IMG/VR virus record: IMGVR_UViG_3300032770_000013
Location: 1-64,000 of that record
Strand: one strand, 5' to 3'
Length of the DNA stretch: 64,000 nt
Origin: a virus
Under the pieces are notes generated by a model, which was given only the letters and a program-made list of their open reading frames with translations, did no database searches and was not told where the DNA came from. This document shows, piece by piece, positions 13,690-37,915 of this stretch (the stretch's first letter is position 1; each line of letters begins with the position of its first letter). Position numbers and translations under genes: made by a program.

Positions 13690-13764
13690 TGGCAAGGGAC
13701 CGGAGATTTGAACTCCGACTGCATGGTTTTGGAGACCAGCCGACTGCCGTTATCTTAGTCCCCT
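13690..13764 (-). tRNA. tRNA-Trp(CCA)
   Basis: Cloverleaf, CCA end. Confidence 0.9.
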
Positions 13765-13765
13765 A

Positions 13766-13837
13766 TGGTACTGCGTGAGGGTTACGATCCCTCTTGAGCC
13801 GGATTCACAGTCCGTCCCCTGTCCAACAGCACGCAGC
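13766..13837 (-). tRNA. tRNA-His(GTG)
   Basis: Cloverleaf with short D-arm, A73, no G-1. Confidence 0.85.
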
Positions 13838-13842
13838 ATATT

Positions 13843-13916
13843 TGGTAGCGCGCCCCGGTGACGATCCGGGCCAACCATCCTTATGAGAGACAGCCGTTCA
13901 CCAGCGAACGCGCGCT
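13843..13916 (-). tRNA. tRNA-Met(CAT)
   Basis: Cloverleaf, atypical T-loop. Confidence 0.8.
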
Positions 13917-13923
13917 GTAAATT

Positions 13924-13999
13924 TGGCAGCCGAGGTAGGTCTCGAACCCACAACCTTCAGATTCAAAGTCTGCTGCGCTACCAATTACGCCACTCGGCC
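13924..13999 (-). tRNA. tRNA-Gln(TTG)
   Basis: Cloverleaf, CCA end. Confidence 0.92.
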
Positions 14000-14003
14000 G
14001 TAT

Positions 14004-14078
14004 TGGCACCCCGTGCGGGTGTCGATCCCGCTTCTCCGGTTTGAAGGACCGGGATTCTAGCCGGTAAACTAACGGGGC
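14004..14078 (-). tRNA. tRNA-Glu(TTC)
   Basis: Cloverleaf, C33. Confidence 0.88.
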
Positions 14079-14083
14079 AAAAA

Positions 14084-14157
14084 TGGTGCGGGCTCGGGGA
14101 CTCGAACCCCGAACCTCTGGTTGGAAGCCAGATACGTTACCTTTACGCTAAGCCCGC
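14084..14157 (-). tRNA. tRNA-Gly(TCC)
   Basis: Cloverleaf, CCA end. Confidence 0.92.
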
Positions 14158-14243
14158 GGCGGAAAGCTGAGAGCACGATTCTCACACCCGAAGGTGCCCT
14201 TCGTTTAGCAAACGAGGACGGGATCCCACCCGCTTAGCTTTCC
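14158..14243 (-). tRNA. tRNA-Ser(GCT)
   Basis: Long variable arm; ends GCC directly against tRNA-Gly. Confidence 0.85.
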
Positions 14244-14247
14244 GTAT

Positions 14248-14324
14248 TGGTGATCTCGGGAAGACTCGAACTCCCACACAATCGTTTAGGAAACGATGGC
14301 TCTGTCCAGTTGAGCTACGAGACC
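14248..14324 (-). tRNA. tRNA-Arg(CCT)
   Basis: Cloverleaf, CCA end. Confidence 0.92.
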
Positions 14325-14325
14325 G

Positions 14326-14396
14326 TGGTCTGGCGAGGACTCGAACCTCGATCCAACGCTTAGAAGGCGTCGCTTTATCCCGTTAAGTACCAGACC
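14326..14396 (-). tRNA. tRNA-Arg(TCT)
   Basis: Cloverleaf; full CCA not encoded after the discriminator. Confidence 0.85.
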
Positions 14397-14401
14397 GTAT
14401 T

Positions 14402-14475
14402 TGGAGGAACAGGGGAGAATCAAACTCCCATACGCGGGGTTGCAATCCGCTGCATCATCACTCTGCCACTGTCCC
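14402..14475 (-). tRNA. tRNA-Cys(GCA)
   Basis: Cloverleaf, U73. Confidence 0.88.
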
Positions 14476-14479
14476 GTAT

Positions 14480-14553
14480 TGGCACCCCTTGATGGAATCG
14501 AACCACCCTCTGCTGGTTCAGAGCCAGCCGTCCTGCCGATGAACGAAAGGGGT
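14480..14553 (-). tRNA. tRNA-Gln(CTG)
   Basis: Cloverleaf, CCA end. Confidence 0.9.
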
Positions 14554-14557
14554 AGAT

Positions 14558-14633
14558 TGGTCTGGGTGCGGTGTTCTGCCCACCGTCCTTCTGGTTCCAA
14601 GCCAGAGACTCTTCTAGCACGAGCTTCACCCAG
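14558..14633 (-). tRNA. tRNA-Pro(TGG)
   Basis: Cloverleaf, atypical D- and T-loops. Confidence 0.8.
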
Positions 14634-14639
14634 ATAAAA

Positions 14640-14718
14640 TGGAGCACACGGGGAGAGTCGAACTCCCATTTTCCAGTTACGGTTCCAATGATTCGTAGTC
14701 ATGGCCGATTACGTGTGC
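14640..14718 (-). tRNA. Atypical D-armless tRNA-like gene, anticodon ACG (Arg)
   Basis: 7-bp acceptor stem, T-arm, anticodon arm and CCA; no D-arm; about 20-nt extra region. Confidence 0.65.
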
Positions 14719-14719
14719 A

Positions 14720-14794
14720 TGGAGCCGCCAGCGGGTTCCGACCCCGCTTCATTTGGTTGAGAACCAAATATCCTAGCCACTAGACGATGGCGGC
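14720..14794 (-). tRNA. tRNA-Glu(CTC)
   Basis: Cloverleaf, CCA end. Confidence 0.88.
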
Positions 14795-14798
14795 AAGT

Positions 14799-14882
14799 TG
14801 GCTGGAGAGGGAGGGATCGAACCTCCGCCACGATGGGGACTCCGGTTAACAGCCGGGCACATTACCGCTCTGTCACTCTCCA
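14799..14882 (-). tRNA. tRNA-Asn(GTT)
   Basis: Cloverleaf with extended variable region. Confidence 0.88.
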
Positions 14883-14883
14883 A

Positions 14884-14955
14884 TGGTGGAGAAACGGAGA
14901 ATCGAACTCCGAACGGCAGCCTTGCAAGGGGTGCCTGTGTCCCAACACTTTCCCC
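14884..14955 (-). tRNA. tRNA-Ala(TGC)
   Basis: G3:U70 pair, short D-arm. Confidence 0.85.
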
Positions 14956-14959
14956 GAAA

Positions 14960-15035
14960 TGGTGCCCGGTCGTGGTTTCGAGCCACGCTCTCCTGCTCTT
15001 CAGGCAGGCGCTTTCACCAGATTAGCTTACCAGGC
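14960..15035 (-). tRNA. tRNA-Phe(GAA)
   Basis: Cloverleaf, CCA end. Confidence 0.9.
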
Positions 15036-15036
15036 T

Positions 15037-15110
15037 TGGTGCGGACACGGGGAGTCGAACCCCGGCCACTTCGTTGGCAACGAAGGAGACTGCCGTAATC
15101 CTTTGTCCGC
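15037..15110 (-). tRNA. tRNA-Gly(GCC)
   Basis: Cloverleaf, CCA end. Confidence 0.9.
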
Positions 15111-15111
15111 A

Positions 15112-15197
15112 TGGTAGGCGAGGCAGGACTCGAACCTGCGAAGACCGAAGCCGAGGGTTTTACAGACCCTTGTCGTTGCCGCTTGAACTACTCGCCC
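15112..15197 (-). tRNA. tRNA-Tyr(GTA)
   Basis: Long variable arm, CCA end. Confidence 0.92.
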
Positions 15198-15202
15198 TTA
15201 AT

Positions 15203-15276
15203 TGGTTGCGCAGGCCAGAGTCGCACTGGCGTCTTCAGGTTATGAGCCTGATATGGAACTCCTCCACTACCGCGCG
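15203..15276 (-). tRNA. tRNA-Met(CAT), initiator-like
   Basis: C1:A72 mismatch. Confidence 0.82.
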
Positions 15277-15282
15277 TCAGTT

Positions 15283-15371
15283 TGGCGGAAACGTGAGGTC
15301 TTGATCCCCAATGGCTTGCGCCATCCATCTCGCTTCGAACGAGCGCCGAGCACTTGCCCAGTTACGTTTCC
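15283..15371 (-). tRNA. tRNA-Ser(CGA)
   Basis: Long variable arm, G73. Confidence 0.85.
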
Positions 15372-15376
15372 GTATT

Positions 15377-15463
15377 TGGCGGAAGGCTGAGAACATGATT
15401 CTCATACGTTGCCGTACCAGCCGCTTTCCAAGCGGTGCCGGAGCCCTGTCCGGTTAACCTTCC
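15377..15463 (-). tRNA. tRNA-Ser(GGA)
   Basis: Long variable arm, G73. Confidence 0.87.
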
Positions 15464-15467
15464 GTAT

Positions 15468-15552
15468 TGGCGGATGGCTGAGGTGTCGATCCCCATACCT
15501 TGCGGTACTACGAGTATTCAAAGCTCGCTGCCGGGCCGCCGGCAAACCATCC
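15468..15552 (-). tRNA. tRNA-Ser(TGA)
   Basis: Long variable arm, G73. Confidence 0.8.
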
Positions 15553-15557
15553 GTATT

Positions 15558-15634
15558 TGGCGTTCCCTCGGTGATTCGAACACCGGGCCTCGGGCTTCGG
15601 AAACCCGCGCTCTTTCCTGCTGAGCTAAGGGAAC
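15558..15634 (-). tRNA. tRNA-Arg(CCG)
   Basis: Cloverleaf, CCA end. Confidence 0.92.
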
Positions 15635-15948
15635 AAAATTCCCGCCTTTTCAATAAAGACAATCTGCTTGTCGTCCTTCAAGATCGTCGGCCCGCGGCCG
15701 CACTTTCCGTCGAGCGCTTGAAACAGCGCCGTGATGAGGTTGTCCAAGTCCGGCCCGGTCGGGTCGATAAACAGCGCCGATAAGGAAATCTGGTGCTTCA
15801 GTTGCACAAGGCCAGCTTCCTGTGCTGCTTTCCACAATTCCTCTCGATAGCGCTTTAGCACCTCGCGATGAACGCGGCGGTGCGGTGCGCCATGCACATA
15901 GACCGTCAGCAGGCGCCGTGGATGATCGTACTGAACCTTGCAGCGCAT
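15625..15948 (-). CDS. rusA: RusA-like Holliday junction resolvase inside the tRNA array
   Basis: PDLDNL...DG...KDDKQI motif; GAGG RBS before ATG at 15948. Confidence 0.75.
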   Translation of the reverse strand: MRCKVQYDHPRRLLTVYVHGAPHRRVHREVLKRYREELWKAAQEAGLVQLKHQISLSALFIDPTGPDLDNLITALFQALDGKCGRGPTILKDDKQIVFIEKAGILFP

Positions 15949-15960
15949 AATCGCCTCGTT

Positions 15961-16035
15961 TGGTGCTTGCGCCGGGATTCGAACCCAGGTCAAACGGTTA
16001 TGAGCCGTCGGCACTAGCCACTGTGCTACACAAGC
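15961..16035 (-). tRNA. tRNA with CAT anticodon, probably Ile2 (lysidine type)
   Basis: Cloverleaf; third CAT tRNA in the array; Ile2-like arms. Confidence 0.8.
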
Positions 16036-16038
16036 AAT

Positions 16039-16115
16039 TGGTCGGGGTGGCAGGCTTCGATCCTGCGACCACTCGCTTCCGAAGCGAGGACTCTACCTGG
16101 CTGAGCTACACCCCG
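16039..16115 (-). tRNA. tRNA-Pro(CGG)
   Basis: Cloverleaf, CCA end. Confidence 0.92.
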
Positions 16116-16121
16116 TTGAAT

Positions 16122-16196
16122 TGGCGCGACTGGCGGGTGCTGACCCCGCGTCCTTTCCCTTGACAGGGGAGTGCTCCACCGTTGAGCTACAGCCGC
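16122..16196 (-). tRNA. tRNA-Asp(GTC)
   Basis: Cloverleaf, G73. Confidence 0.88.
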
Positions 16197-16200
16197 ATTA

Positions 16201-16276
16201 TGGTGTGCATGGGGCGAATCGAACGCCCACTGAACAGCTTCTCAAGCTGGTCCCTCTGCCGTTGGGGTACATGCAC
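16201..16276 (-). tRNA. tRNA-Leu(GAG)
   Basis: Cloverleaf, short variable loop. Confidence 0.88.
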
Positions 16277-16279
16277 GTT

Positions 16280-16355
16280 TGGTAGACCACCGGGGATTCG
16301 AACCCCGACCTCAGGGATTAAGAGTCCCGCGCTCTGCCGTTGATGCTAGTGGTCT
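16280..16355 (-). tRNA. tRNA-Lys(CTT)
   Basis: Cloverleaf, CCA end. Confidence 0.9.
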
Positions 16356-16360
16356 GTGAA

Positions 16361-16443
16361 TGGCGAACCCCGGTGGTTTCGAGCCACTTGGCGACGGGTT
16401 AAAAGTCCGGTCCCTCTCCATTCGGGTTTAAGCCTCGGGGTCC
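16361..16443 (-). tRNA. tRNA-Lys(TTT), atypical
   Basis: About 8 extra nt between acceptor stem and D-stem. Confidence 0.75.
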
Positions 16444-16490
16444 AAAGACCCCGCGTTTGAGTGGGTCACTCATTTTTCGAGTTCCTTATT

Positions 16491-16564
16491 TGGTGCGCCA
16501 GTGAGGAATCGAACCTCCGTCCCACGGTTATCGGCCGCGTTCTCTGCCATTGAGATACAAGCGC
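16491..16564 (-). tRNA. tRNA-Ile(GAT)
   Basis: Cloverleaf, C33. Confidence 0.88.
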
Positions 16565-16570
16565 ATTTGT

Positions 16571-16645
16571 TGGTGCGTCGTCGGTGAGTTGAACACCGGA
16601 CCTTTTGCGTGTCGAGCAAACGTTCCACCGCTGAACTAACGACGC
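16571..16645 (-). tRNA. tRNA-Val(GAC)
   Basis: Cloverleaf, C33. Confidence 0.88.
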
Positions 16646-16646
16646 A

Positions 16647-16721
16647 TGGTAGGCGCTGAGAATTACGATATCTCGACCTTCGCGGTGTAAACGCGACGCT
16701 CTTCCTCTGAGCTAAGCGCCT
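16647..16721 (-). tRNA. tRNA-Val(TAC)
   Basis: Cloverleaf, CCA end. Confidence 0.88.
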
Positions 16722-16727
16722 GTAAAT

Positions 16728-16804
16728 TGGTGCCCTAGGCAGGCCACGATCCTGCACTGAAAAGGGTTTAAGCCTTCTCCCTCTGCCAATTGGGGTACTA
16801 GGGC
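16728..16804 (-). tRNA. tRNA-Leu(TAA)
   Basis: Cloverleaf, short variable loop. Confidence 0.88.
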
Positions 16805-16805
16805 G

Positions 16806-16881
16806 TGGTGCACGTCTGGCGATTTGAACGCCGACTGAACGGGGTTTGAAGCCGCTGCCTCTGCCATTGGGCTAGACGTGC
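16806..16881 (-). tRNA. tRNA-Leu(CAA)
   Basis: Cloverleaf; register matches the other Leu tRNAs. Confidence 0.82.
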
Positions 16882-16885
16882 AAAT

Positions 16886-16962
16886 TGGTAGCCTCGGGGA
16901 GATTCGAACTCCCAACGCATGCCTTCTGAGGGCATCGTCTCTGCCAATTGGACTACGAGGCC
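16886..16962 (-). tRNA. tRNA-Leu(CAG)
   Basis: Cloverleaf, short variable loop. Confidence 0.9.
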
Positions 16963-16967
16963 GTAAA

Positions 16968-17041
16968 TGGTGCCCTCTACAGGTTACGATCCTGTGTCCG
17001 CTCCTTACCAAAGAGCAATTCTGCCATTGAACTAAGAGGGC
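16968..17041 (-). tRNA. tRNA-Thr(GGT)
   Basis: Cloverleaf, CCA end. Confidence 0.88.
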
Positions 17042-17046
17042 GCGAT

Positions 17047-17121
17047 TGGTGCCGGCTGGGTGAATCGAACACCCGCACTCTGCTTACAAGACAGAACCTC
17101 TGCCACTAAGGATAAGCCGGC
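17047..17121 (-). tRNA. tRNA-Thr(TGT)
   Basis: Cloverleaf, CCA end. Confidence 0.9.
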
Positions 17122-17122
17122 A

Positions 17123-17196
17123 TGGTGCTGGTTCCGTGAATCGAACACGGGCAACCTTCTTACGAGGGAGGTGGACTGCCACTATCCTAAGCCAGC
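17123..17196 (-). tRNA. tRNA-Thr(CGT)
   Basis: Cloverleaf, CCA end. Confidence 0.9.
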
Positions 17197-18128: not shown

Positions 18129-19046
18129 CTACAATTTCGCCATCGGCACTATGCCAAGCCGATCGAGCGCATTCCCAATGCAAGCGGCTGGCGTCAGAAT
18201 ATCTCTAAACCTCTCAAACTGCTTGGCATACAGCGCCTTCCAGAACGGCTTGTAGGATTCCGCCTCCCGGTAAAACCCGTCCAAGCTATCCGCAAAGCTG
18301 ATGATCTGATTCCAAGGCGCAGCCAATTCATGCGGCTCCGCAATGACCGGGCGTCCAAGGCTTAATGCCGACGCGCAGCGAGAGGACGACACCAGCCCCA
18401 TTTTCTCAAGGATCCGGATTTGCACGATAATCCGCGCACTCTGCATTTCCAGATCACGGGTCTCCTGCGCCGAAGCCGTTGGGTTATGCAAGGAAATCAA
18501 CTTGACCGTCCCGCGCCGACCAAGCTTCCTGAGAATTTTATATCGCCTGTTCGACACTGAGCCATAAAACCCGAAATCATGATCTGGCTGGCGGATTTGC
18601 GGCCGCATCATGCCGGGAGAATAGCCGAGTTCAATCTGCTCTGTCGGTGCATATTGCCCATACCAATGCGCTGTGTTCGGCACTAGAGCTAAGACGGCAT
18701 CGGCATATTTGGCGGCTTCGGGAAAAAGAGCCTGCCGCAAAACCATAAATCGATCGGCAGCATGATTAAAACCAACAAATCCAGGCTCCTCACAAGGCTC
18801 TTCAGTTGCAACAAAGATGAACCGACAATCATGTAATCTGCGCGCCTCTTTAAGCATGGCAATCGAAAGTAAATTAAATCCTTCAAAAATCAGATTTACA
18901 CCATCCTTTCCACGTAGAAATTCATCGTCCGAATGATCTATTTGATGACCTAAAGATCGGAGTTGATGGACAATAATTTGCGATGGGTCTTGTAATGACA
19001 GCCTGCCAATTTGTGAGTGATTAAAAAGATTTAACCGAAAGCGCAA
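18129..19046 (-). CDS. Glycosyltransferase-like protein (GT-B type)
   Basis: DFGFYGS...RR and VSSSRC...RPVIAE motifs; paralog of 53585-54772. Confidence 0.55.
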   Translation of the reverse strand: MRFRLNLFNHSQIGRLSLQDPSQIIVHQLRSLGHQIDHSDDEFLRGKDGVNLIFEGFNLLSIAMLKEARRLHDCRFIFVATEEPCEEPGFVGFNHAADRFMVLRQALFPEAAKYADAVLALVPNTAHWYGQYAPTEQIELGYSPGMMRPQIRQPDHDFGFYGSVSNRRYKILRKLGRRGTVKLISLHNPTASAQETRDLEMQSARIIVQIRILEKMGLVSSSRCASALSLGRPVIAEPHELAAPWNQIISFADSLDGFYREAESYKPFWKALYAKQFERFRDILTPAACIGNALDRLGIVPMAKL

Positions 19047-19048
19047 AA

Positions 19049-19139
19049 TCGCCTCGCCATACCAAACCGGGCCGATGCCAAAACATGCCTTACCTTTGCG
19101 AGCCGGGGCTTACCAAACTCCAGCATGCCGCACCATAAC
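19049..19139 (-). ncRNA. GGY-NN pentamer tract E (putative guide RNA)
   Basis: About 18 units, ending GGCGAGGCGATTTT. Confidence 0.75.
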
Positions 19140-19157
19140 TCAAAGCGATAAAAAAAT

Positions 19158-19254
19158 CCTCGCCGCGCCACACGCTGCCAGACCGTGCCGTGCCTCAGCA
19201 GACCCCGGCTCGCCCCGACAGGCCACGCAAGACCCGGCCGCAGCGTACCATGCC
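19158..19254 (-). ncRNA. GGY-NN pentamer tract D (putative guide RNA)
   Basis: 19 in-phase units, ending GGCGAGGA-T7. Confidence 0.8.
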
Positions 19255-19277
19255 TCCTTCAAAAATCGCCAAAATAT

Positions 19278-19410
19278 CCTCGCCTAATCCAAACCTCACC
19301 CGGCCTTGTCATACCTTGCCACAGCTCACTGAGCCAAGCCGGGCCGCACTTAACCTAACCTAGCCACGCCCCGCGTTGCCAAATCGCGCCCGGGATCGCC
19401 ATGCCCAACC
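19278..19410 (-). ncRNA. GGY-NN pentamer tract C (putative guide RNA)
   Basis: About 26 units, ending GGCGAGGATATTTT. Confidence 0.75.
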
Positions 19411-19421
19411 GCTCCGCAAAC

Positions 19422-20036
19422 CTACTTGAAGTTTACGATTCCAAAGCGGCCGAATGTCGGCCTAAAATCACCGATGCCGATCAAGCGACCAGCACTTTCA
19501 ATCGTTTCGCGCAAGGCATTGTGATCGACGTATTCCGGCAGCATCACGAGAAGATCAAACGTGACCTTCCAGCCGGCGCGCAAGGCAGGCCGCACGCGGT
19601 TGATACCTTGGCGCTGAATCATAACGCGCCGTTTATCCAAATAATCCCAATCCTTTACGCCGAGAGTGGCGAGCGGACTGGTGACGACAATGGCGGCCTT
19701 GAACAGGTCCATTGCGGACTTCCGCGGTGACCGCGGATCTTGCCGGAATTTCGCCGCGTTGATGATTGAGCCGCGAAGATACTCGCCGGGGACACAGATT
19801 TCACCGGCGTCGTTCCGATAGACGTAGGATTCTACGTCATCGGTCTTTTTGCCTTTGGAATTTTTAGCGGCGCGGGCTTTTTCATCGACCGCCTCGCTAT
19901 TCCATCTGTGCATTAAAAGATCGGCGGCCCCTTGAATCGTCACGCGAACCGGATATGGCTCGCTGTGAGAGATGACTTCGTTGCCACCGGAAGTCGGCTC
20001 AGAAATGTGGATAACTTTAGCTTTAGTTGCAGTCAT
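19422..20036 (-). CDS. Stand-alone RAMP/Cas7-like RNA-binding protein (Vipr-like)
   Basis: VTIQG..DLLMH, VPGEYLRGSI, RVRP and C-terminal G-loop GIGDFRPTFGRF; flanked by pentamer tracts. Confidence 0.75.
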   Translation of the reverse strand: MTATKAKVIHISEPTSGGNEVISHSEPYPVRVTIQGAADLLMHRWNSEAVDEKARAAKNSKGKKTDDVESYVYRNDAGEICVPGEYLRGSIINAAKFRQDPRSPRKSAMDLFKAAIVVTSPLATLGVKDWDYLDKRRVMIQRQGINRVRPALRAGWKVTFDLLVMLPEYVDHNALRETIESAGRLIGIGDFRPTFGRFGIVNFK

Positions 20037-20060
20037 TGTATTTGCTCCATTTTGGTTGAT

Positions 20061-20149
20061 GGAGACCTCACCGCACCGATGCTTGCCCTAGCTTGCCCAA
20101 CGCGACCTGACCAAGCCGCACCAAAGCGCGCCGTAAGCAAAAGGTCTCC
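20061..20149 (-). ncRNA. GGY-NN pentamer tract B closed by a GGAGACC/GGTCTCC stem
   Basis: About 14 units inside a 7-bp inverted repeat. Confidence 0.75.
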
Positions 20150-20269
20150 CCCGCGCTGAGCCTGCTAAGCCCGGAACGCGGTTCAGGGGTCACTTTTCAG
20201 CGACACTCAGACACGGGGAAGTTCGTGAGAGGTGCCGCGTTCTTCGCGTTAGCAGCCGCGAATGGAAAA

Positions 20270-20297
20270 ATAATACCGAAAATAAATCGAATGTCTA
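20270..20297 (-). promoter_or_regulatory. Sigma70-like promoter for tract B and the RAMP gene
   Basis: TAGACA-16nt-TATTAT. Confidence 0.5.
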
Positions 20298-20316
20298 GTG
20301 CCATTCACCAGCCCAA

Positions 20317-20332
20317 TGTTTCACGTGAAACA
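20317..20332. promoter_or_regulatory. parS-like ParB binding site
   Basis: Perfect palindrome TGTTTCACGTGAAACA. Confidence 0.7.
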
Positions 20333-20345
20333 TTTTGGTAATGTC

Positions 20346-20464
20346 GAACGGAGCCCGAAGGCCCCGTTCTCCCTTACCGAAACTCACCGCAGCCAACCGG
20401 ACCGGACAAGACCATGCCGAAGCCCACAACGGCAAACCATACCAAGGCCAGCACAAGCCCCACC
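20346..20464 (-). ncRNA. GGY-NN pentamer tract A with 3' hairpin
   Basis: About 18 units then GAACGGGGCC-TTCG-GGCTCCGTTC; TATAAT upstream at 20478-20483. Confidence 0.75.
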
Positions 20465-20517
20465 ACGTGAGGACAACATTATACAGTAATTCGTAACGTT
20501 CCAGTATATTTTCAGCT

Positions 20518-23500
20518 TCATGTTTTGCGATTCTCAACATGAGCGAACGGCTTGGTGGTCTTACCATGTTCAAGCCATTTTTTGAAATCCGGCAACGTCA
20601 TTTGGTGAATTGCGCCGACACGGTCCACTCCTCGTCCATCTGCAAATGCGCGGTGATAGACATTGGTGGCATGCTTGAGCGATGCCGCGCCAAGAATTAT
20701 TTTGTGCTCATCGAACTTCTTAGTGTCGGCGTCAACTTGATCCACGATGTAAACACATTTCGCTCGCGGGTGGTCGCACAAAAATACGTCTAGGTTATCA
20801 CCATCGGCACCATCGTGGCGTTTCAAATATCCGTAGTGGGCTGGAAGCACGCTCCGCCAAGGACGACCATCCTTATCGATGCCGCGACGGATTCCGCCTT
20901 TGCCATTTTCAATGGTGATCTGAAGTCCGAATTTGTGCAGATGGTCCTTTTTGTAATTCCCCGCTGCGATCTGCGCTTTGCTTGGATGCTTTTCGATATT
21001 CCGCACTTCGACTCTTCCCCCATGCGCCCGCTTTGGCGTCAAATTCTCGATTGCCTCATCCTTCGTCTTTCCGGTCGAGAGTAATTCGCCGTCCTTGTCG
21101 TAGACGCCCCATTTATTGAGCGGGATACCGGTAAACTCAGCCGTCAGACCTTGCGGTAATACTCGGCCGCCGCTGGCTCTTGCCTGCGCCTTTTCCTGCT
21201 GAGAGACCGTTGGCCTGCCCTGCAATTCATTCGATATATCGCTGATCCAGTTATCTTTTTGACCAGTGACGTTCATCATGAAGTTGTCGTACAGCTTTTG
21301 CGGTGTTGATTCGCTGCGCGCATCCTCCACGTTGGTCGACGGTCGAAAGTCCGCGTATGGGTCTGGTGCCGGACCGCCATCAGCTCGCTCAATTCTCTCG
21401 CGCGGCCCTATTGGATCGCTTGGATCGACGTCGGCTGTTTGCCGAGCCATCTGCCATTCGGCGTTGGATTGAGATTCGGGATGATCGTCTGGAGCGCAGA
21501 TAGAGCCGCCTTGGGCCATCCCTTGTGTATTGGTCTTTGCGAATGGATCGTAATCTACGGGAACGGTTTGGAAATGAGATGCACCCCCTGCAACCAATCC
21601 GGCGAGGCCGTATTTCTTGATGATGTCGATCAGCTTGTCGTTGAAGACGACGTAATTTCTGGTCGGATTCTCATATGAATTTATCTGCGCCTGAAGGTTT
21701 TTGATCACGCCTTCATCACCGCGCGCTTGGGCTTTTTCTAAAGCTGTCCGCAGTGCCTGCAATTGAGTCGGTGTCGCGCGAGAGCCTTGGTCTAGATATT
21801 TGATACCGGGGATTCCAGCATCGCGAAGTTGCTGCGCCACGCGCTGAACATCGGTGTGACCTTGGCCCGGCGTATGCAGACTGATTTCATTGTTGCGATA
21901 AATCTGCTCGCCGGTCTGATTCGCGTGCGCTTCTGGATGCGCGAGCCAAGCGTCTTTTAATTTTTGCTGGACAGCCGGACTCTGCTCACTCAGCGGCTTA
22001 TCCCAATCAAGGAAATGCTCGGGATCGGCGTTGATGTTGACTTCGTAGAGATTGCCAGCCTTTGATGGGTATGGTATTTCACTGCGAACATGAAGATCGC
22101 CCTTATCTGCGCTTCTTGCGGCAAGAGCTTCCTCAAGCATCGCAGTGCTTTGAGGCCCAATCAGCGGACGTTTTGCAGTCGCGAGTGCCACGTAAGGGGC
22201 CAGCATATCGACGGCCTTAACGCGGCTGGCTACAAGATTATTCGCGTTGGTAGGAAGCAAGTCTACGAGCATAGATGGATTATTGAGCAAAGCATCGGAC
22301 GTAAACTCCTTCCCACCGAGCATGTGCATCACATCAACGGGAAGAAGTCGGACAACCGCCTTTCCAATCTCCGGGTCTTGGAGGAGTCCACGCATCACCG
22401 GGAGCACGTCGCTCCTACTTTCGACATCGAGCGAGCGAAAGCCCTTTACGAGCAGGGGATTGGATACCGCAAACTTGCCGAAATTTTCGGCGTGGCTCGC
22501 CAAAACATCAGAGGGTGCTTCATACGTAGGGGCTGGCATGTTACCGGCCGTACCCGCCGTTCTATAACTCTCGGCAGTTGATGGATGCTCAGCCAGATAA
22601 ATTCCATGCCCATAAGCCTGTGCGCCTTCGCCGGTGCCGATCTTCGATAGATCGAACTTGTCGAAGTCGTAGGGGCTGCCGTGATAGGCGCGGATGCCTT
22701 GGGGTTGTGGAACTTCGGACAACAAAGGATGAATGAGCTTATCGCTTCCGACATTAGCGGGATCAAACGAATCAAAACGTGATCGCACTTGGCTCGGTTC
22801 AAAGACCATGATGTGCGGACGACCCGGCGTTCCAGTTATCTCCTTCTGCGGATCGCCAATGATCGCATCATATCCAGCGTCCCGAATGGCCTGAGCCTTT
22901 AGCGCCACAGGTGTGTCTTGACCAAGGCCGTGATAAAAAAGCGTGCTGCCGGTCCAGTATTTCAGCGGGCCACCTTCGATCATCTTTTTGGCCTGCTCGG
23001 TGCGGCCGGCGGCTTTCAAAACTTCTGCCGCTTGCTCGGCAGTTATCGGCTGGTCCATGCGAAACGGATTCTGCACTTTGAGCTTGACGGGCATGACGCG
23101 CGGAGTATCGCCGGACCAGGCGCCAGTGTGCTTATTGGCAAATTCAGCGGACGGCGTGAAATAAAAGTTGCCCCCGTATTGTATGTTGTCGCGGACCTTC
23201 ATCGGATCGAAAGCTTCGAACTCCTGCGAGCCAGTCCCGTGGAATGCGTCAATCGTCCAACCTTGCTGTGCGGCTCGCGCCATCCGGCTTGCTTCATCCA
23301 TTGGGAGCGCAGCGCGAGCGGCAGCAGTTAATTCCGGCGCAACCTTTTCGGCCGCCCCCATCGCCACCTTGGCTGCCCGCATTTCCGGCGTCAGCAACCC
23401 GGCAGCCGACATCAGCGCGAAGTTCTGCGCTTCATCGGGCGTCATCTGACCACGCAACGCGCTGATTGCATCATTGACGCCAGTCACATCGCCAGCAACA

Positions 23501-23649
23501 TTGGCGACCTTCCCGGGCATTGATGCTATATCTTGCCCTACAGTCGGTGGCGCAATTGTCTGCCCCGGCTTGGCGACTGGCCCTACCGCGAACGGATCAT
23601 GATCGACCGGAACGAGGTCATAATCAGGCTGCAATTGATCGTCGGGCAC
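20518..23649 (-). CDS. Polyvalent ejected protein: two ADP-ribosyltransferase-like domains and a C-terminal pyrophosphatase-like domain
   Basis: AFHGT..YFTP; AYHGSPYDFDKFD..GHGIYLAE; GNYKK..ITIEN..HYGY..GADGD..FDEHK. Confidence 0.7.
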   Translation of the reverse strand: MPDDQLQPDYDLVPVDHDPFAVGPVAKPGQTIAPPTVGQDIASMPGKVANVAGDVTGVNDAISALRGQMTPDEAQNFALMSAAGLLTPEMRAAKVAMGAAEKVAPELTAAARAALPMDEASRMARAAQQGWTIDAFHGTGSQEFEAFDPMKVRDNIQYGGNFYFTPSAEFANKHTGAWSGDTPRVMPVKLKVQNPFRMDQPITAEQAAEVLKAAGRTEQAKKMIEGGPLKYWTGSTLFYHGLGQDTPVALKAQAIRDAGYDAIIGDPQKEITGTPGRPHIMVFEPSQVRSRFDSFDPANVGSDKLIHPLLSEVPQPQGIRAYHGSPYDFDKFDLSKIGTGEGAQAYGHGIYLAEHPSTAESYRTAGTAGNMPAPTYEAPSDVLASHAENFGKFAVSNPLLVKGFRSLDVESRSDVLPVMRGLLQDPEIGKAVVRLLPVDVMHMLGGKEFTSDALLNNPSMLVDLLPTNANNLVASRVKAVDMLAPYVALATAKRPLIGPQSTAMLEEALAARSADKGDLHVRSEIPYPSKAGNLYEVNINADPEHFLDWDKPLSEQSPAVQQKLKDAWLAHPEAHANQTGEQIYRNNEISLHTPGQGHTDVQRVAQQLRDAGIPGIKYLDQGSRATPTQLQALRTALEKAQARGDEGVIKNLQAQINSYENPTRNYVVFNDKLIDIIKKYGLAGLVAGGASHFQTVPVDYDPFAKTNTQGMAQGGSICAPDDHPESQSNAEWQMARQTADVDPSDPIGPRERIERADGGPAPDPYADFRPSTNVEDARSESTPQKLYDNFMMNVTGQKDNWISDISNELQGRPTVSQQEKAQARASGGRVLPQGLTAEFTGIPLNKWGVYDKDGELLSTGKTKDEAIENLTPKRAHGGRVEVRNIEKHPSKAQIAAGNYKKDHLHKFGLQITIENGKGGIRRGIDKDGRPWRSVLPAHYGYLKRHDGADGDNLDVFLCDHPRAKCVYIVDQVDADTKKFDEHKIILGAASLKHATNVYHRAFADGRGVDRVGAIHQMTLPDFKKWLEHGKTTKPFAHVENRKT
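22090..22581 (+). CDS. HNH endonuclease with zinc finger and HTH, nested antisense within the polyvalent gene
   Basis: CASC..FCSREC; YEHR..VHHINGKKSDNRLSNL; C-terminal HTH. Confidence 0.8.
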   Translation: MKIALICASCGKSFLKHRSALRPNQRTFCSRECHVRGQHIDGLNAAGYKIIRVGRKQVYEHRWIIEQSIGRKLLPTEHVHHINGKKSDNRLSNLRVLEESTHHREHVAPTFDIERAKALYEQGIGYRKLAEIFGVARQNIRGCFIRRGWHVTGRTRRSITLGS

Positions 23650-37070: not shown

Positions 37071-37781
37071 CTAAGCGCGCGGCGGCGTGGCAATCGGGTT
37101 TGGTTGTTTTGGCGTCCAACCTTGCGACTGATACCGTTTGCGCATTTCCTCAGTGTTTGCAGATGCCCACAAATCCTGATAGTGTTTTGACCAACTCGAC
37201 GAACCTTGCGGATCGTCTGTAAGAGCGCCGAAGTCTTTCAAATAGCCATAACCAAATATGAGAGATTCTGCTAGGAAAAGGTCCGGCAGATACAAACTCA
37301 AATAAGTTTGCGGGTTAGTAGCACTCAATGGCGTTGGTCTAATTGTCCCGATAACCTCCATCGTGTATGCCGCATCTGGAGGTGGCCCTACAATGATTGT
37401 CTGGTCCGTTATCATCGCGTAGTATTGCGGGACCGATGGCGTTGTTGTTGCCGTCTCGTTGCCCCACATCCAATCGATGAACTCGCGCGAGGTCGGCACA
37501 AGCTGAACGCGATTGCTGGAGTTGAGCGGATAAAAGACATTCATGCTCTCAGTAACAACAAACCGTCCTTGGTCCTGAGGTAGCGTGAAGCTGCGACTAT
37601 TAGGTGTAAGAGTCGCGCTGGAATCTACAATTACAGAATTTAAAATATCTAATTCTCTGAGGATTCTTTGCTCGGAATCGTCGATCACATTCGGCAAAAA
37701 TGTTTGAAAATTCGGGTCATTCTGAGGAATGACCAGCATGTTGGCCAGCGACTGAACGTATGTCGTATAGGTAAGGCTCAT
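37071..37781 (-). CDS. Head-tail adaptor protein
   Basis: EQRILRELD, PQYYA..VGPPPD and PDLFL motifs. Confidence 0.7.
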   Translation of the reverse strand: MSLTYTTYVQSLANMLVIPQNDPNFQTFLPNVIDDSEQRILRELDILNSVIVDSSATLTPNSRSFTLPQDQGRFVVTESMNVFYPLNSSNRVQLVPTSREFIDWMWGNETATTTPSVPQYYAMITDQTIIVGPPPDAAYTMEVIGTIRPTPLSATNPQTYLSLYLPDLFLAESLIFGYGYLKDFGALTDDPQGSSSWSKHYQDLWASANTEEMRKRYQSQGWTPKQPNPIATPPRA

Positions 37782-37800: not shown

Positions 37801-37915
37801 GAAAGGCCGCCACGTTAGCGACGACCTTTCCACCCCTATCAGACCGGAACTCACCAGAACTCACCCGAGCTAACCATAACCGACCTGATCTCACCGCATC
37901 TCGTCTCACCATAAC
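37801..37915 (-). ncRNA. GNY-NN pentamer tract F with 3' hairpin (putative guide RNA)
   Basis: 17 in-phase units then GAAAGGTCGTC/GGCGGCCTTTC stem. Confidence 0.75.

Follow-up and report, generated by a model that had tools for sequence, protein, structure and literature searches.

Directly upstream of a glycosyltransferase-like gene in an uncultivated phage lies a short non-coding tract that spells, at two bases per codon, a homologue of a segment of that gene. Judged from its sequence, the locus to which the tract belongs is a VIPR system, a vipr RAMP gene flanked by five vrRNAs (A to E), and sequence comparison across the gene family identifies the decode of vrRNA E as a true homologue of the downstream gene. 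The explanation that we favour, and consider probable, is that E is a working vrRNA aimed at the allele of the glycosyltransferase family carried by an unsampled rival phage, with the resident gene being spared by nine mismatches.

VIPR (Viral Interference Programmable Repeat) was first described in 2026 (bioRxiv 10.64898/2026.04.26.720920). The small RAMP-like protein Vipr polymerises on vrRNAs that consist of alternating GGY and NN units (2026 VIPR preprints, bioRxiv 10.64898/2026.04.26.720920; structures in bioRxiv 10.64898/2026.04.26.720927), and the resulting filament skips one base of the double-stranded DNA for every NN that it reads, forming a gapped R-loop triplex and silencing transcription (2026 VIPR preprints). 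In natural targets at least 80% of the NN positions match and the skipped bases lie at codon wobble positions; self-matches of at least 80% are absent, lower scores are those of non-targets, and perturbed NN pairing abolished silencing (bioRxiv 10.64898/2026.04.26.720920). Some vrRNAs, either solo or VIPR-borne, target the vipr genes or vrRNAs of relatives and have a lower self-match (bioRxiv 10.64898/2026.10.15.759431). Most of the natural targets known so far are those of coliphage SUSP1 and of Pseudomonas prophages.

The record is a 95,988-bp viral contig, complete by CheckV, and the window, by which we mean the whole stretch of DNA analysed here, is its first 64 kb. The 96-kb phage is tRNA-rich and encodes large virion and ejection proteins; ARAGORN finds 31 tRNA genes, all of them in one orientation, on the minus strand (window 13690-17196), where the initial annotation had claimed 39, and a 129-aa ORF (15625-16014) is found within the tRNA array. 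The non-coding DNA on either side of a 204-aa ORF, which sits between a polyvalent-protein gene and a 305-aa ORF, displays a strong 5-nt periodicity. Across the whole 96-kb genome this period-5 signal, with phased CC on the plus strand and GG on the minus strand, reaches array level only at 19076-19425, 20056-20165 and 20356-20445. Read on the minus strand, the three regions are runs of GGY+NN pentamers that make up five tracts, A to E, each of which ends in GGCGAGG and a U-rich stretch or in a hairpin. Rfam recognises no known RNA family besides tRNAs between 17000 and 21000. The features of the locus, from upstream to downstream, are the following:

20518-23649, minus strand: polyvalent-protein gene with ART and pyrophosphatase domains, the upstream neighbour of the cassette
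20372..20464, minus strand: vrRNA A, about 18 units with a 1-nt bulge (sequence parse)
20270..20297, minus strand: sigma-70-like promoter, TAGACA-16-TATTAT (from a consensus scan only)
20061..20149, minus strand: vrRNA B, 13 units, just upstream of vipr (sequence parse)
19422..20036, minus strand: vipr gene (P0003), encoding a RAMP-like Vipr of 204 aa with the C-terminal glycine-rich loop GIGDFRPTFGRFG (phmmer, profile, phrog_4652)
19278..19410, minus strand: vrRNA C, about 19-26 units, possibly after a short degenerate unit set (sequence parse)
19158..19254, minus strand: vrRNA D, about 18 units (sequence parse)
19049..19139, minus strand: vrRNA E, 16 NN+GGY units (sequence reading, period-5 signal, tail motif)
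18129..19046, minus strand: P0002, GT-B fold glycosyltransferase-like gene of 305 aa with a TTG start (AF2/Foldseek, 128 homologues)
18861..18908, minus strand: near-match site of vrRNA E in P0002 codons 47-62, peptide KDGVNLIFEGFNLLSI (23/32)

The extended -10 element TGTATAAT (20485..20478) precedes vrRNA A, and a 10-bp UUCG hairpin (20369..20346) follows it. The promoter-like site at 20270..20297 could drive vrRNA B, vipr and vrRNAs C to E, and the hairpin in the tail of vrRNA B holds the ribosome-binding site of vipr. Between the vrRNA A hairpin and this promoter-like site we noted a perfect 20-bp palindrome with the parS-type consensus TGTTTCACGTGAAACA (window 20315-20334). A separate period-10 run of GGTGAG-type units, in which GGT and GNT pentamers alternate, occurs on the minus strand at window 37830-37895, directly upstream of the gene starting at 37781; after it come a 14-bp hairpin and then a U-rich stretch, and the 223-aa ORF that covers it looks spurious. 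This run may represent an attenuator or else a solo vrRNA that has degenerated, and no target was found for its NN string (best score 18/26).

The one solved structure matched by the 204-aa protein is the "SUSP1 Vipr protein" (PDB 36pp). A single-sequence phmmer search gave E = 2e-7 over about 75 well-aligned residues, and a profile built from eight relatives of P0003 gave E = 1.2e-10 with a nearly full-length alignment (27-196 of 200 against 5-187 of 202). The AF2 model of this protein from the same number of aligned sequences had a pLDDT of 38.8 and is unusable for the fold. Arrays of at least four YNNGG (GGY/NN) units lie on both sides of vipr and on the same strand, and at the level of the locus one guide has a clear target in another phage (vrRNA B, discussed below), the best self-match of any guide being 72%. 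In nine loci with Vipr proteins that are 57-93% identical, vipr is preceded by a single array and followed by several; the NN strings vary from locus to locus, save for partial sharing in B and C, and the related cassettes occupy unrelated genomic contexts in which the flanks are not conserved. TRAP-like attenuators, G-quadruplex arrays, rut sites and centromere iterons were dropped as candidates after the Vipr match had identified the system.

The locus resembles Type II VIPR, as known from Escherichia phage SUSP1 and a Pseudomonas fulva prophage, in having a single small vipr that shares its strand with one vrRNA before it and an array of vrRNAs after it, in its GGY/NN pentamer units, in the 3' tail of each vrRNA and in the 1-nt skip rule with the skip at the wobble position. 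It is likewise phage-borne, and its guides are directed at other mobile elements, further VIPR systems among them. However, its Vipr is only distantly related to that of SUSP1; in place of the SUSP1 pseudoknots the tails, as read from the sequence, are short GGCGAGG and U-rich motifs; the guides reach 18-26 units compared to the 9-16 reported for Type II; and the inferred targets are the gene families that flank the cassette, instead of satellites and prophage regulators. We recognised no vap1-like gene beside vipr and no other vap accessory gene (for a DNA-binding protein, nuclease or helicase); there is no small ORF between vipr and the arrays, and the neighbours are the polyvalent virion protein and the GT-B enzyme. 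P0002 itself was rejected as a conserved vap-like partner; its homologue is absent from 9 of 9 related VIPR loci and from 5 of 5 of their contigs checked, and an array within 1.5 kb was seen at only one of 36 homologue loci.

Parsed as NN+GGY pentamers, the minus strand from 19139 to 19060 yields the 16 dinucleotides of vrRNA E, with an extra C after unit 13 that makes this a 6-nt unit; 11 units carry a canonical GGY and five are degenerate. Its 3' end, GGCGAGG with a U-rich tail, is a motif common to C and D and overlaps the ribosome-binding site and the TTG start of P0002. Read as NNx, that is with one base skipped per unit, the NN string agrees with the plus strand of 18862-18908 in 23 of 32 positions (72%, hand count), which reproduces the gapped match reported in the initial annotation. 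No other position on either strand of the whole 95,988-bp genome scores as high (the runner-up reaches 20), and skip rules of 0 and 2 nt or wrong pentamer phases give no comparable match at this site. The base skipped by E is the third codon (wobble) position of the P0002 ORF, and the decode is [IM][NK]G[IM][NK][IM][FL][FL][DE]G[FL][NK]P[IM]A[IM], to be compared with the resident peptide KDGVNLIFEGFNLLSI. The register survives the 6-nt unit, as unit 14 still decodes a Gly that is conserved in the family.

Both the NN string and the gene segment are AT-rich, and the similarity between them might be a matter of chance. The binomial with local base composition gives 2.8e-7 per site, which after Bonferroni correction amounts to about 0.05 genome-wide, and five guides were examined. 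However, unit-order shuffles of E scored at least 23 in only 3 of 300 and 3 of 200 trials (p of 0.01-0.015), the skip falls in wobble register, and the mismatches are conservative and consensus-like. A further argument against chance comes from the gene family. We fetched 36 homologue loci and located the matching 16 codons in 29 of them. Against these 29 sites and the resident site E scores 20.1/32 on average; at the same codons the family members score 21.5/32 among themselves, and the resident P0002 scores 18.9/32 against the family. None of 2000 shuffles of E scores above 17.0 (p < 1/2000), and the set includes GC-richer homologues. At codons 4, 6 and 13, which are among those that differ between E and the resident gene, the family sides with E in 21, 13 and 16 of the 29 sequences, whereas 2, 1 and 0 side with the resident gene; therefore, E encodes a distinct sequence that resembles a family member and not a drifted copy of the resident gene. 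Chance is effectively excluded as the source of the likeness between E and the family, and a fortuitous resemblance of two AT-rich strings is a very improbable explanation of the match at the resident site.

The initial annotation had described the downstream gene as glycosyltransferase-like and its 5' third as AT-rich. The first label is right because P0002 is predicted with confidence to have a GT-B fold (AF2 pLDDT 94.6; Foldseek matches to GT4-type GT-B enzymes with E of about 1e-8 and TM of 0.5-0.6); no Pfam family matches it. The family test bears out the proposed homology of the E decode. The AT-rich 5' third was confirmed as well, with a GC content of 0.37 at 18850-19046 compared to 0.55 for the genome, and a GC3 of 0.13-0.40 in codons 1-120 compared to 0.57-0.77 downstream. 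The 128 homologues of P0002 include many on phage contigs of 60-120 kb. Between P0004 and P0005, the homologues closest to it, identity is 63.5% over residues 1-100 and 93.6% over residues 101-305; on the basis of these identities and of the GC3 profile the N-terminal domain is a recombining module, and the N-terminal third, which holds the site of E, is mosaic among the closest relatives. This mosaicism fits escape from targeting, and it fits equally well an exchange of the domain with which a GT-B enzyme binds its acceptor.

The code of E spells codon positions 1 and 2 of a 16-codon stretch, GINI[L/F][L/F]EGF[N/K]P..., of the GT-B glycosyltransferase-like family. Its most likely target is therefore the allele of a competing, related phage. 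The resident gene differs at 9 of the 32 coded positions, and its match is below the published level for calling a target (an NN match of at least 80%), so the phage would spare itself. By analogy with SUSP1, Vipr protomers would polymerise along the E RNA, burying the GGY triplets and presenting the NN dinucleotides, and the filament would read double-stranded DNA as NNx, form a gapped R-loop and block transcription. Since no sampled homologue reaches 80%, we infer the susceptible rival allele, as we do the expression of E, filament formation and silencing.

The search for such an allele covered 29 DNA homologues and 120 protein homologues, none of which matches E at 80% or more. The best DNA matches, 24/32 (75%), are found in L021, L023 and L029, and for P0005, the homologue closest to the resident protein, the peptide bounds the score to at most 25/32. 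L029 reaches 21/26 (81%) only when the three units after the 6-nt unit are left out, and is located on a complete 111-kb phage without vipr. Exact NNx scans of viral contigs with E units 5-13 and 1-8 returned unrelated AT-rich matches or none, and no match in the glycosyltransferase family; no match in this family was among those listed for units 7-14 in viral contigs, and none was found with units 4-14 in metagenome contigs. Close relatives of P0002 were found neither in viral contigs with a single protein as seed, nor in metagenome contigs with an alignment of the three-member subclade as seed, nor in searches with N-terminal fragments of P0002.

An alternative explanation is that E is a relic, a guide that once fitted an allele of the glycosyltransferase family, then drifted or outlived its target, and silences nothing now. 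The lack of a target at or above 80% among the sampled homologues is what one would expect of a relic, as is the nearly equal distance of E from all sampled members of the family (63-75%), and the 1-nt bulge that gives rise to the 6-nt unit after unit 13, together with the five degenerate GGY triplets among 16, could indicate decay. However, guide B is similarly degenerate in its scaffold (4 of 13 units) and nevertheless has a 96% target, and the register across the 6-nt unit of E is preserved. Furthermore, only two relatives in the databases searched are more than 60% identical to the resident P0002, both on short contigs; therefore, the relevant rivals have barely been sampled. We consider it unlikely, on balance, that E is a relic, and return to a working guide as the preferred reading.

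Guide B provides the precedent for a guide with a partial self-match. On the vipr gene of L004, whose Vipr is 81% identical, vrRNA B matches at 25 of 26 positions (96%), in frame and with the skipped base at the wobble position; it scores 19/26 on the vipr gene of L003 and 18/26 (69%) on its own vipr gene (19891-19928). The 72% self-match of E is thus at about the level of the self-match of guide B, which clearly has an external target. This comparison bears on the possibility that E acts in cis, the 72% match giving weak Vipr binding to its own P0002 and thereby tuning its expression in a form of autoregulation. In favour of this, the resident site is the best match of E in the genome and belongs to the gene that follows the guide within one transcription unit, at a distance of 150-280 bp on the downstream side. 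Against this stand the external target of guide B at a similar self-match and the published observations cited above, in which scores below 80% were those of non-targets and perturbed pairing abolished silencing. In addition, the mismatched codons of E follow the family consensus, which would be unexpected for a guide tuned to the resident gene. Autoregulation through E is in our view improbable, and an external target for E is the better reading.

Searches with vrRNAs C and D yielded no target. A run of seven NN units (GT TA TA TA GC CC TT) is common to vrRNA C and a vrRNA of L004 (L004:3725-3809), which, from the sequence, indicates partial guide homology between the cassettes. Reciprocal targeting was not detected, as neither the vrRNAs of the relatives nor those of G006 match this genome at 80% or more. 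G006 is a complete phage of 111.9 kb that has very large and very regular GGT/NN arrays, the largest of 82 units, in which a GGGCTTTATTTGTAGATTTTCTGC tail recurs (L075:2879-10657, corresponding to G006 contig 99878-107656), a distant vipr homologue and a glycosyltransferase-like homologue embedded between the arrays. Its guides gave no match of at least 20/24 among the sequences compared.

The initial annotation had further proposed that the locus targets its own centre and both flanks in relatives. For the centre this agrees with the match of vrRNA B to the L004 vipr gene, and for the downstream flank with the family-like decode of E. The case for the upstream flank is less clear: the best genome match of vrRNA A, 22/36 at 20984-21036, falls in the upstream polyvalent-protein gene and its decode sides with homologue L076 at some mismatched codons, but the match is not significant alone. 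Given these three observations, the locus appears to point at homologues of its centre and flanks, and for three of the five guides the best genome-wide match falls in the locus or in its two neighbouring genes. The cassette of L003, whose Vipr is 93% identical, contains, as judged from its sequence, another guide with a likeness to the neighbouring gene. Its last vrRNA matches an adjacent, convergent 105-aa ORF at 26 of 38 NN positions (L003:4056-4266), with the skipped base at the wobble position and a conservative decode; none of 300 shuffles reached this score, and the binomial expectation for the locus is about 2e-4. The pattern is present in two independent contexts, that of E and the glycosyltransferase-like gene here and that of the final L003 guide and the gene beside it.

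The same annotation interpreted the layout as that of a homing or allele-exclusion element with immune flanks. The homing part is unsupported because the cassette, which consists of vipr and the arrays only, has no nuclease or recombinase (P0002 and P0003 have no Pfam or PHROG nuclease matches), and silencing of transcription is how the published VIPR systems with this layout act. The idea of an immune flank and susceptible relatives is not supported for E by the relatives sampled: none matches E at 80% or more (best 24/32), and they are as divergent from guide E as the resident gene, a result that counts against it by the refutation criterion of that annotation. The proposed exclusion of rival alleles resembles the marker exclusion exerted by the seg and mob homing endonucleases of T-even phages. 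In mixed infections these cassettes disadvantage the rival allele of a neighbouring gene through DNA cleavage and gene conversion, whereas their own linked allele is resistant. In contrast, the locus described here has no nuclease, and the expected outcome would be silencing and not co-conversion. A similar distinction applies to phage-encoded CRISPR-Cas, Cascade-type interference or CRISPRi (Class 1), in which a RAMP protein also polymerises on a guide RNA with periodic unpaired positions and which phages also carry and use against competing elements; however, the VIPR code is gapped 2-in-3 and not 5-in-6, and the locus has no repeat-spacer array, adaptation genes or nuclease.

Compared with the vrRNAs described in bioRxiv 10.64898/2026.10.15.759431, guide B behaves alike, fitting a rival's copy of vipr better than the one in its own phage (25/26 against 18/26), and E has a similar self-match; for E, however, the presumed target family is that of the neighbouring glycosyltransferase-like gene and not a VIPR component, and a non-self target above threshold was not found for it. 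A limited term search of the VIPR preprints found no mention of flank-directed guides, and this layout is possibly new, although VIPR itself is already known. We tentatively suggest, as a possibility more doubtful than the function proposed for E, that VIPR cassettes of this clade routinely carry guides against alleles of the flanking genes and against rival vipr genes, and that in mixed infections the cassette with its divergent, self-immune flanks acts as a linked allele-exclusion unit.

The locus extends VIPR to an uncultivated, tRNA-rich phage of 96 kb and adds one clean inter-phage target, that of guide B in the vipr gene of a relative. A further suggestion from it is that the targets of guides can include alleles of ordinary phage genes that adjoin the cassette; should this be true, VIPR would be a marker-exclusion device that shapes the mosaicism of phage genomes. 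Sub-threshold self-matches could also help to predict the purpose of orphan guides. If the cassette and its flanks do form an allele-exclusion unit, this unit would drive the cassette's spread and, in the targeted segments, in this case the N-terminal third of the glycosyltransferase, a rapid diversification into mosaics.
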